Shown: positions 585 to 6,059 of the stretch, in pieces
Position numbering within the stretch: the first letter of the stretch is position 1
Layout of the letters: each line of letters starts with the position of its first letter
Origin: a virus
Lineage: Duplodnaviria > Heunggongvirae > Uroviricota > Caudoviricetes
DNA length: 6,059 bases
Reading direction: 5' to 3' (one strand)
IMG/VR virus record: IMGVR_UViG_2660238548_000015
Notes under the pieces: model-generated
Seen by the model: only the letters and a program-made list of their open reading frames with translations
Told to the model about the DNA's origin: nothing
Database searches by the model: none
Program-made: the position numbers and the translations under genes

Positions 585-717
585 AATGTTCCTCTCAATT
601 GGTATTATTAATCGCAGTGATAGGATATTGCACAGCTATTGCGCGATATCATCAGAACGCTGTTTGTTACCCTGTAACCAGCAAGCTCAGTCTGTTAACG
701 GAATTAATGAGGGTTTT
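585..717. promoter_or_regulatory. Divergent intergenic region between the J start and the sodC start; likely holds the sodC promoter and RBS (GAGGG at 709..713, 4 nt before the ATG)
   Basis: 133-bp non-coding gap between divergent start codons. The RBS is read directly. Weak sigma70-like elements (TTGCAC at 628..633 with a poor -10) and an imperfect dyad GTTAC-CCT-GTAAC at 666..678 were found by eye; no promoter is confidently placed. Confidence 0.3.
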
Positions 718-1245
718 ATGAAATGTAAAATCATTGCTGCCATTGCCATGCTGACAGCAGCATCATGCGGATACGCAGCAGAACAGGAAGTCCCAATGAA
801 CCTTGTCAGTGCTGACGGAAAAGAAGTCAGCATTGGAAAAATAACCATTCAGGAGACCCCCTACGGTCTGCTGTTCACACCAGCCCTTCACTCTCTGTCT
901 GAAGGCATTCATGGTTTTCATGTGCACGAAAAAGGAAATTGCGCCCCGGCACTGAAAGACGGAAAACCGGTCGCAGCATTATCGGCTGGCGGTCACTTTG
1001 ACCCGAAAAACACCGGCAAACATCTTGGCCCCTGGTCTCCGGATGGACACCTGGGCGACCTCCCTGCGCTGTTCGTGACGCATGACGGAAAAGCGAACTA
1101 CCCGGTCCTGGCCCCGAGACTGAACTCATTAAAAGAGATTAAAGGGCGTTCTCTCATGCTTCATGCTGGCGGTGATAACCATCATGACCATCCGGAGCCC
1201 CTGGGCGGTGGTGGTGCGAGAATGGCCTGCGGCATCATTCAATAA
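718..1245 (+). CDS. sodC: Periplasmic copper/zinc superoxide dismutase (SodC family) with N-terminal signal peptide; prophage cargo ('moron') gene
   Basis: ATG at 718 with GAGGG RBS; 175 aa, stop TAA at 1243..1245. Hydrophobic N-terminus [21 protein letters not shown]. Cu,Zn-SOD hallmarks are present: [11 protein letters not shown] (Cu-ligand His, disulfide Cys), GGHFDP, GKHLGP, GHLGDLP (Zn-site His/Asp), LMLHAGGDN (Cu His), [12 protein letters not shown] (Arg and second Cys). Collinear with enterobacterial SodC proteins as recalled. The upstream part of track ORF 211..1245 is antisense to J and is not part of the gene. Confidence 0.92.
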
Positions 1246-1252
1246 TCAGTCA

Positions 1253-1280
1253 GGTAAGGGGCGGGCCCCTTACCTTTATT
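1253..1280 (+). terminator. Rho-independent terminator for sodC
   Basis: Perfect inverted repeat GGTAAGGGG (1253..1261) / CCCCTTACC (1266..1274) with 4-nt loop, followed by TTTATT (1275..1280), 8 nt after the sodC stop. Confidence 0.7.
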
Positions 1281-4328: not shown

Positions 4329-4682
4329 TTATCGTCGCCGGTTAACGGCGGGTGGTTGACCACGGTTGAGCCAGAGATAACAGCTGCCCCCGTCATCCGG
4401 AGAAACACGATCCACCCAGAATATCTCACCATTAATGGTCAGCGTGTCACCACGCCGCACGGCACGAACCGTATCCGTCCGCACAAATAATGACGGGCTG
4501 CTTCCTTCAATACGGACCCCGCCACCGGCAAACCCCAGCGACTCCGGATCGTCAAAAACCCCCTGAACTTCGCTGCCACACTGTGCCCCCGAGGTGAACT
4601 GCGCACAGAGCCCCATCACTTCAACAATCGTGCTGTCCACCCCGGCAAGGGCAGCATCAAAGGCATTCTGAAAATCACGCAT
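4329..4682 (-). CDS. FII: Head-tail joining protein FII (head completion)
   Basis: Homology to lambda gpFII (MADFDNLFDAAIA...GVFDDPE...GVRVEGSSPSLFVRTDEVRQLRRGDTLTI...FWVDRVSPDDGGSCHLWLGRG.PPAVNRRR) begins at MRDFQNAFDAALAG. Start chosen at ATG 4682..4680, giving 117 aa, the lambda length as I recall it. In-frame ATGs at 4700 and 4718 are alternative starts. Stop TAA at 4331..4329. Confidence 0.85.
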   Translation of the reverse strand: MRDFQNAFDAALAGVDSTIVEVMGLCAQFTSGAQCGSEVQGVFDDPESLGFAGGGVRIEGSSPSLFVRTDTVRAVRRGDTLTINGEIFWVDRVSPDDGGSCYLWLNRGQPPAVNRRR

Positions 4683-5049
4683 AAACAGCCATTCCGCCAT
4701 CAACGTGTGTTTTTGCATCTGAGGACATAATCAGAATCACCCGACCAACATCCGCAATCTCAACGGATTCCCCTGTTTCACCATCAATGCCACAGAGATG
4801 GAGGCAGGTCAGAACTCTGATGCGCGTTAACGCACCGGATGTATCCTCACGAACATCATGAGCCGCGGTTTCCCGCTCCCGGATCACCGTATCCCCAACC
4901 TGAACATCCTCGCCGGATGACTGTATTTCCTCTTCCCATTCCGCCACCCGCTGCGCTATCTCTGCGGCACTCCCGGATATATCCGGCTCACGCCCCAGAA
5001 TCAGGGCCAGTTCATCAAGCCGTTTCAGATTTTGCTCTTTCGTTGCCAT
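4675..5049 (-). CDS. FI: DNA-packaging / head assembly protein FI
   Basis: ATG at 5049..5047 preceded by AGGGGG Shine-Dalgarno (revcomp of 5055..5060). MATKEQNLKRLDELALILGREPDISGSAAEIAQRVAEWEEE... resembles lambda gpFI in its N-terminal region and acidic middle. The track's longer ORF to 5097 begins at a GTG with no RBS and is not preferred. Stop TGA at 4677..4675. Confidence 0.8.
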   Translation of the reverse strand: MATKEQNLKRLDELALILGREPDISGSAAEIAQRVAEWEEEIQSSGEDVQVGDTVIRERETAAHDVREDTSGALTRIRVLTCLHLCGIDGETGESVEIADVGRVILIMSSDAKTHVDGGMAVYA

Positions 5050-5100
5050 ATCAGCCCCCTGTGAAAAAAGACACGGGGGCATTTCGCCCCCGCTCACGGA
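5050..5100 (-). promoter_or_regulatory. E-FI intergenic GC-rich hairpin with U-tract (terminator/attenuator-like), with an alternative pairing that sequesters the FI Shine-Dalgarno
   Basis: On the minus-strand mRNA: CGGGGGC-GAAAU-GCCCCCG (plus 5092..5074, 7-bp GC stem) followed by UGUCUUUUUUC, just after the E stop. The same GCCCCC segment (plus 5075..5080) can instead pair with GGGGGC in the FI Shine-Dalgarno (plus 5054..5059). Seen directly in the sequence; function is inferred. Confidence 0.5.
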
Positions 5101-6059
5101 TTATTTCACCTGTACCACCACAAACTCATCCGGGTCCGGCAACACCATCAGCGGCGCGGACTGCGTCATGGTAAATTCACGGGCGGGATCCCCCACCGTC
5201 AGCCAGTGTTTCGGATAACGGGAAGAGGCCACCACACCTTCGGACAACGCCTGCGCATCCTGAATGGCACCGTAACAACGGATCCCATCTGCAGCAGTAT
5301 TCCCCAGAACCAGCATGCCCTCCGGCAGATAACGTTTTTCGATACCGTCTTCTGCTATATAAGACGTTTTCGCCACCACAATGGCCAGATCGCCGTAATA
5401 CCCCTTGAAGGACACCACTGCGCCCAGATCTTTCACTGCCGTTTCGAGTTGAGAATTTGAACCGCGACGGGTATCCAGTTTTTCGCGGAACAGCTTAAAA
5501 CCATTCAGAAGACGCCAGACGGTACCGTCCATAATGGCAATATTCACAAGACCGCTGGCCTGGTCGCAGTAGAGGTCAAGATCATGTGTAGGATCGAACG
5601 TGTCACGATCCTGTTTTGACCACTCCTTACCACTACCCTGAGTGATGTTATTCTTCGTCGACCTGCCAAAATCGACCTCAATTTTCTCGAACTGGTCTCC
5701 TTCCATCGTATATTTGCCATACAACACAGCATTTACCGCCTGTATTTCTTCCACCTGGACAATCGCGTGCTCTTCCTGTTTGAGGTTATCGGTAATGATA
5801 CGCAGACGGCGGTAAGCCGGATCGTTCAGTTGAGCCGGATCTTCACCAGGAAGGCGCTCAACCGCCTGCTGGTAATTAAATTCGTGTTTCGGCTTGACGT
5901 AGCCCGGACGTAACACGCGGGTTTCACCACCACGATGACGCAGCACTTTTCCTTCAACAACCGGGGAGACATAGGCCGCCACCGGCGTTTTTCCGGTAAT
6001 TTTGTCCAGCATCACCTCTTCGGTATGGAAATTCACCGTACGGCGGAAAAACAGCTCCA
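5101..6059 (-). CDS. E: Major capsid protein E; 5' end (~20-40 codons) lies beyond the right edge
   Basis: Stop TAA at 5103..5101. The frame is open to the window edge and reads ...ELFFRRTVNFHTEEVMLDKITGKTPVAAYVSPVVEGKVLRHRGGETRVLRPGYVKPKHE...KLDTRRGSNSQLETAVKDLG...GDPAREFTMTQSAPLMVLPDPDEFVVVQVK, collinear with lambda gpE from about residue 25 as recalled. The track's 'M' at 6036 is an internal GTG (Val), not the true start. Confidence 0.95.
   Translation of the reverse strand, partial: ELFFRRTVNFHTEEVMLDKITGKTPVAAYVSPVVEGKVLRHRGGETRVLRPGYVKPKHEFNYQQAVERLPGEDPAQLNDPAYRRLRIITDNLKQEEHAIVQVEEIQAVNAVLYGKYTMEGDQFEKIEVDFGRSTKNNITQGSGKEWSKQDRDTFDPTHDLDLYCDQASGLVNIAIMDGTVWRLLNGFKLFREKLDTRRGSNSQLETAVKDLGAVVSFKGYYGDLAIVVAKTSYIAEDGIEKRYLPEGMLVLGNTAADGIRCYGAIQDAQALSEGVVASSRYPKHWLTVGDPAREFTMTQSAPLMVLPDPDEFVVVQVK

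Follow-up and report, generated by a model that had tools for sequence, protein, structure and literature searches.

The boundary between the major capsid gene E and its downstream neighbour FI in a lambda-type late operon raises the question of what the RNA made from this short intergenic region does: whether a stem-loop formed there acts on the transcribing polymerase, on the RNA of the capsid genes or on the translation of FI. We addressed this question for a 6,059-nucleotide stretch of viral DNA, hereafter the window, and for the E-FI junctions of its relatives.

Genes and source lineage of the window

The minus strand of the window carries lambda-type late genes: the 3' part of E, then FI, FII, Z, U, V, G/T and the start of H. 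The E coding sequence (5101–6036, minus strand; Pfam Phage_cap_E, 9e-58) starts outside the window and ends with a TAA stop codon at 5103–5101. It is followed by the gene for the DNA-packaging chaperone FI (4675–5049, minus strand; Pfam Packaging_FI, 7.8e-17), whose ATG at 5049–5047 agrees with the phage 21 and RefSeq annotations. This part of E is 98.5% identical to phage 21 gene 7 and 100% identical to its counterpart in the E. coli O145 RM9872 prophage. The E-FI region shows the same relationships, with 98.5% identity to phage 21 (M81255, OL657228) and 100% identity to prophages of E. coli O145 RM9872 and O103:H2, and 95 of 95 bases around the junction are shared with phage 21.

The remainder of the window has several features of its own. 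Near the end of G lies a lambda-type G-T slippery sequence, GGGAAAG (2208–2202, minus strand), as expected for a programmed −1 frameshift. The tape-measure gene H ends at 63 codons, at about 1570–1583, where it is fused to the last ~48 codons of the tail assembly (I-type) gene; relative to an intact relative, the prophage copy lacks M, L and K as well as most of H and most of I. Judging from this gene content, the prophage copy in the window is probably defective. A Cu/Zn superoxide dismutase gene, sodC (712–1245, plus strand; Pfam Sod_Cu, 4e-32), lies on the strand opposite to the tail genes, has a strong terminator-like hairpin of its own on its 3' side (1252–1275, plus strand) and is located between tail genes I and J in other EHEC-type prophages.

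A terminator-type stem-loop directly after the major capsid gene

The top terminator-like match returned by a terminator scan of the window is a GC-rich stem-loop directly after E (5073–5093, minus strand). Its 5' arm GCGGGGGC (5093–5086), loop GAAAU (5085–5081) and 3' arm GCCCCCGU (5080–5073) form a stem of 8 bp, made up of seven G-C pairs and an outer G-U pair, around a loop of 5 nt. The hairpin begins 7 nt past the E stop codon, and the FI ATG lies 23 nt beyond the stem. Downstream of the stem, a U-rich tail, GUCUUUUUUC (5063–5072, minus strand), can be read directly from the sequence; it contains a run of six U residues (5069–5064) that is separated from the stem by the spacer GUC. Folded alone, the hairpin has a predicted free energy of −16.8 to −17.3 kcal/mol and a pair probability of 0.99. 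The sequence-only reading of this locus had proposed a hairpin followed by U6 after the E stop, to be examined by folding, and the proposal is borne out by the sequence itself, by the stable predicted fold and by a shuffle test.

For that test, we counted hairpins with at least 7 Watson-Crick pairs, at least 6 of them G-C, a loop of 3–8 nt and at least 6 T residues in the next 10 nt. One such hairpin is present in the window, compared with 0.0033 per dinucleotide-shuffled window (300 shuffles, both strands counted). Together with the control windows described below, this result rules out a chance origin of the hairpin. The fold z-score of the whole region (−1.0) is uninformative because the runs of G and C fold well in shuffled sequences too, and the case for the hairpin rests on the local shuffle test and the comparative data.

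An intrinsic-terminator architecture on the late-gene strand, as had been suggested, is supported: the hairpin is GC-rich with a short loop and lies on the transcribed strand in the proper sense, and an imperfect U tract follows it after the spacer. On the plus (reverse) strand the hairpin has no T tail, and a bidirectional terminator was rejected on these grounds. The tail of the window element scores 3.08, which corresponds to the 95th percentile of the late-strand background, with a d-type score of ~16, and most relatives have better tails. Given the spacer and the middling tail score, the window element may therefore be a weak terminator. As far as its sequence allows it to be classified, the element is an intrinsic-terminator-type stem-loop, consisting of a GC hairpin and a U tract directly after E, with putative termination activity. 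Term-seq data from EHEC Sakai are available under GEO GSE143631 (PMC7547250).

The hairpin has no match among the curated RNA families of Rfam 15; the only match in the window is a sub-threshold one to STnc400 at 1209–1285. Neither GenBank nor RefSeq marks an E-FI hairpin in the records of phage 21, lambda, HK630 or 434, and no description of it was found in the papers searched.

Hairpins of unrelated sequence at every sampled E-FI junction

We gathered E-FI junctions from collections of genomes and viral contigs, using as queries the E protein, an E protein alignment and a degenerate pattern of the conserved E C-terminus. The survey yielded 286 loci, with some contigs fetched repeatedly, which reduced to 69 distinct junction sequences. 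A GC-rich hairpin lies just after the E stop codon in 69/69 of them. A hairpin of −9.6 kcal/mol or lower is predicted in 68/69 junctions (98.6%) as compared with 5.8% of 45-nt control windows taken from these loci, and a T-rich tail is present in addition in 81% of the distinct junctions versus 2.4% of the controls. The T-rich tail spans nearly all independent hairpin classes.

The stems themselves fall into at least seven unrelated sequences among the 69 distinct junctions: GCGGGGGC/GCCCCCGU, GCGGGAGC/GCUCCCGU, the (A/G)UGGCCC/GGGCCA(U/C) family, AAAGGCCUG/CAGGCCUUU, AGGCGGGA/UCCCGCCU, CGGCGGG/CCCGCCG and GCACCACGG/CCGUGGUGC. A single MAFFT alignment of all hairpin classes was discarded, as it misaligned the arms of classes that have no common sequence. 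The classes were instead compared by a loop-anchored tally, with a formal pair count for the lambda-type class only. Counted outward from the loop, pairs 1–5 are standard in each of the 34 distinct hairpins, and several pair types occur at every one of these positions. Covariation was seen at the two outer pairs of the lambda-type class (AU/GU/GC and UA/CG), with a score that none of 500 shuffles attained; shifting the partner lowers pairing from 94% to 30–57%. The covariation that a comparison with lambda and its relatives had been proposed to reveal is thus found in the hairpin stem of this class. All stem substitutions in the phage 21 class retain pairing. Three C-to-U changes, two of them on the 3' side of the stem and the third on the 5' side, produce G-U pairs, and one double change, G-to-A together with C-to-U, is compensatory. 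At every sampled E-FI junction, then, the structure is kept and its sequence has been replaced many times.

Two variations on the common layout stand apart. In Trabulsiella guamensis (L009), E is followed by an 11-bp hairpin of −21.7 kcal/mol that runs up against the GGAGG belonging to the next gene and lacks a T tract, which makes this the one sampled junction with no U-rich tail; a strong hairpin of this kind makes a hairpin-only role possible. Five viral contigs with lambda-type hairpins (L176, L188, L191, L226 and L230) have a pyrimidine-rich spacer before the hairpin, for example CUUUCCCCAG or CUCCCCCCCU, which in predicted folds pairs weakly with the downstream CUGGAG ribosome site to give a short outer helix.

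Counterparts in lambda, HK97, P22 and other phages

In lambda (NC_001416), the hairpin between E and FI, AUGGCCC-UUCG-GGGCCAU at 7163–7180, is followed by UGUUUCUCU, so that hairpin and U-rich tail together span 7163–7190. It resembles the window element in its position 2–7 nt past the stop codon of a homologous capsid gene (62% amino-acid identity) and just before the FI ribosome site, in its combination of a GC hairpin with a U-rich tail and in its strand. In contrast, its stem is unrelated, its loop is a UUCG tetraloop, its predicted stability is lower (−12.3 versus −16.8 kcal/mol in the window), and its G-rich 3' arm is not complementary to the FI ribosome site. The sequence-only reading had considered the hairpin possibly specific to this phage lineage; the lambda analogue and its presence in all 69 distinct junctions argue otherwise.

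Comparable elements are marked in the records of two phages whose capsid genes have no recognisable sequence kinship to E and whose downstream gene is not FI. The HK97 RefSeq record lists a 'terminator, putative' at 5192–5213, directly 3' of the major head gene gp5, and the P22 RefSeq record a stem_loop at 6102–6119, directly 3' of coat gene 5, with the remark 'similar in location to stem-loops in phage HK97 and phage lambda'. Both share with the window the order of capsid stop codon, hairpin, T-rich tail and start of the next gene within a late operon antiterminated by a Q-type mechanism. Phage L has an intra-operon terminator at the end of its procapsid module, the equivalent of that in P22 (10.1101/2020.10.05.325894); here too a hairpin with a T-rich tail directly follows the major capsid gene. 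The window element has the layout of these lambdoid capsid-distal stem-loops, being located after the E stop codon, in the late operon and before the FI start. On the basis of this layout we regard it as the phage-21-lineage counterpart of the stem-loops in lambda, HK97 and P22, itself unannotated.

HK97 shows a further arrangement (L296, 5186–5221): the sole GGAGG-like sequence lies upstream of the terminator hairpin, and the ATG of gp6 lies 6 nt past the T tract. The hairpin may thus bring together a split ribosome site.

On its 3' side, gene D likewise has a GC hairpin with a T-rich tract, a feature of the 21-type phages, lambda and most relatives. In a 21-type relative (L290) the D-E hairpin occupies 1881–1902, a position upstream of E that corresponds to DNA outside the window, and in lambda (L294, ~6100–6125) it reads AAAGGCCGC-CUGU-GCGGCUUUUUUU. 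With hairpins after both D and E, the E gene is therefore bracketed by terminator-like elements.

Leaky terminators after major capsid genes are known from lytic phages, examples being T-phi after gene 10 of T7, the terminators of phiX174 and that after gene VIII of f1. Inefficient terminators in T7, as well as read-through terminators, have been described (10.1101/2022.03.18.484859). The likeness to the window lies in a terminator-type hairpin placed after the most-needed structural gene, with read-through feeding the downstream genes. The difference is that in T7, phiX174 and f1 the polymerases are not antiterminated and partial termination has been measured, whereas here Q should suppress a putative termination activity.

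The alternative helix with the FI ribosome site is a minor state

The FI ribosome-binding site, AGGGGGC, lies at 5054–5060 (minus strand), and its G-run is so annotated in both phage 21 records. Within it, GGGGGC (5059–5054) is complementary at 6/6 positions to GCCCCC in the 3' arm of the hairpin (5080–5075), with 15 nt between the two. From this the sequence-only reading derived a mutually exclusive second hairpin that would occlude the ribosome site. As an account of how the locus works, this would mean that the terminator hairpin alternates with the hairpin formed by the 3' arm and the ribosome site, the two together holding FI translation low relative to E. The complementarity is real, but the switch is not supported, since the second helix is a minor state and is not conserved.

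A comparison of the free energies of the two conformers, which had been proposed together with the second hairpin, gave −17.3 kcal/mol for the terminator hairpin and −13.2 kcal/mol for the alternative helix, each folded alone. The alternative is thus weaker by ~4 kcal/mol, and the two helices are not comparably stable. At equilibrium, its predicted probability is 0.2–0.6% in contexts of 71–86 nt, 6% in 141 nt and 11% in 251 nt, as against 0.89–0.998 for the terminator hairpin across all unconstrained folds. The value of 11% in the 251-nt context arises because the 5' arm pairs inside the E coding sequence, where its partners would be covered by ribosomes in vivo. During transcription, moreover, the terminator hairpin forms first, and the alternative helix would form later.

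The sole candidate input that could shift this equilibrium is a ribosome at the E stop codon. When mRNA past the UAA was blocked in the folds, the probability of the alternative helix rose to 5% with 6 nt blocked, to 28% with 9 nt and to 99% once at least 12 nt were blocked and the 5' arm was held single-stranded. A terminating ribosome covers ~6–9 nt beyond the stop codon, a range in which the alternative helix reaches 5–28%. As the hairpin starts at nucleotide 8 past the stop codon, a terminating ribosome therefore need not open it.

The alternative helix is also poorly kept in evolution. Across the 21 lineage, the ribosome-site hexamer occurs in eight forms (GGGGGC, GGGGGA, GGAGGC, GGGAGC, GAGGCC, GAGGGC, GGGGAU and GGGGGGG); all seven forms other than GGGGGC weaken the alternative helix, and none is compensated, the 3' arm still being GCCCCC. 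The ribosome-site variants track FI sequence types and the hairpin tracks E, as expected for separate modules. In lambda, Providencia, Trabulsiella and the other hairpin classes, complementarity between arm and ribosome site is just 2–5 nt. The one suggestive case is a variant class (L005/L006) in which both arms of the hairpin have changed together with the ribosome site and 5 bp of the alternative helix are retained. However, when C/U-rich arms of the GCUCC type are paired with ribosome-site regions irrespective of lineage, ~19% of cross-pairings match over at least 5 nt and 71% over at least 4 nt. The three-way covariation of L005/L006 is accounted for by chance matching at this rate, and we rejected it as evidence. 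In junction-only folds, roughly half of the FI ribosome site is paired on average, and its partners vary; among them, the 3' arm is predicted in only four single variants, all with weakened stems. Sequestration of the ribosome site as a theme across lineages was rejected for this reason, the partners being mixed and almost never the 3' arm.

We conclude that the complementarity between arm and ribosome site arises incidentally from a C-run close to a G-run and is not a selected switch, and an alternation of the two hairpins that restrains FI is very improbable. The locus shares with attenuators and riboswitches a 3' arm with two possible partners, one of them a ribosome site; it differs from them in that its states are unbalanced, its only candidate sensor is a ribosome at the E stop codon and its second helix is not conserved. 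It is also highly unlikely that, in the 21 lineage, the C-run of the 3' arm serves, besides its terminator function, as an anti-ribosome-site sequence under the control of E translation. If it did, opening of the 5' arm, held open either by a ribosome 12 nt or more beyond the E stop codon or by upstream pairing within E, would free the 3' arm to clamp the FI ribosome site, and E and FI would be under negative translational coupling.

A putative role at the end of the head-shell genes

The lambda late genes are expressed as a single 27-kb transcript from PR' in a Q-dependent manner (PMC10695390). A search of both strands of the window and of 10 kb from the intact relative (L290) found no sigma-70-like promoter sites, whereas shuffled sequences contain 4.0 and 4.9 such sites, respectively, which suggests a depletion of promoter-like sequences across the late region. 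Because no promoter was found and the late transcript is single and Q-dependent, the genes from FI to H appear to be expressed by read-through alone. The element after E would therefore not be an efficient stop in late transcription.

The role that we consider likely is that of a terminator-type stem-loop closing the head-shell genes, which would trim stray or un-antiterminated polymerases and protect the 3' ends of E RNA. RNA polymerase modified by Q would largely read through the hairpin into FI, FII, Z, U, V, G, T and H. As a leaky terminator, the element would remove incompletely antiterminated polymerases, including those engaged in stray transcription in the lysogen, and the RNAs ending after E would be left with a 3' hairpin that may resist 3' exonucleases. 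Both effects would favour D and E, which are needed in very high copy, over the downstream genes. The near-universal T tail argues for a role at the level of the polymerase rather than for a hairpin-only role, and the hairpin and T tract that also follow D support the leaky-terminator account. Published structures lead one to expect that a Q-loaded polymerase suppresses terminator hairpins, and attenuation during lytic growth may therefore be small.

The same expectation, that a Q-modified polymerase ignores terminators, lends some appeal to a purely post-transcriptional function, in which the hairpin would act as a barrier to 3' exonucleases that stabilises D/E mRNA, or as a block to ribosomes sliding from E to FI, with no termination involved. 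It would agree with the placement of hairpins after D and E, the two capsid genes of highest copy, and with the Trabulsiella hairpin, which reaches its −21.7 kcal/mol without any T tract and abuts a ribosome site. Yet a hairpin that only stabilises RNA or blocks ribosomes would have no need of a T-rich tail, which 81% of the distinct junctions have as compared with 2.4% of the controls, and we regard such an exclusively post-transcriptional role as unlikely. A pure insulator of the lysogen, which would stop polymerases that have entered the head genes without Q, shield the host from leaky expression of the genes downstream and leave lytic gene dosage unaffected, is among the two possibilities raised for the phage L/P22 terminator (10.1101/2020.10.05.325894), and the canonical terminator anatomy and strand specificity of the element fit it. 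This reading leaves unexplained the constant place of the element right after E (and D), while tR' already insulates the operon at its start. Insulation and leaky termination are not separable on sequence data; as the whole explanation, we give insulation only a small chance.

Leaky termination with protection of E RNA remains our preferred reading, and the observation on which it builds is a firm one: the comparative data show strong structural selection on a sense-strand-specific hairpin and U tract at the end of the head-shell genes.

Implications for lambdoid late operons

For the window alone, the finding carries little weight, as it adds a further example of a feature already marked in the HK97 and P22 records. 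Its broader meaning lies in the operon: the late operon, itself dependent on antitermination, has retained a terminator-shaped element behind the major capsid gene at all sampled junctions, and in most cases another behind D. The repeated rebuilding of this element from unrelated sequence points to strong selection for a putative function, for which dosing of transcription, stabilisation of the capsid mRNA and insulation of the lysogen are the candidate roles.
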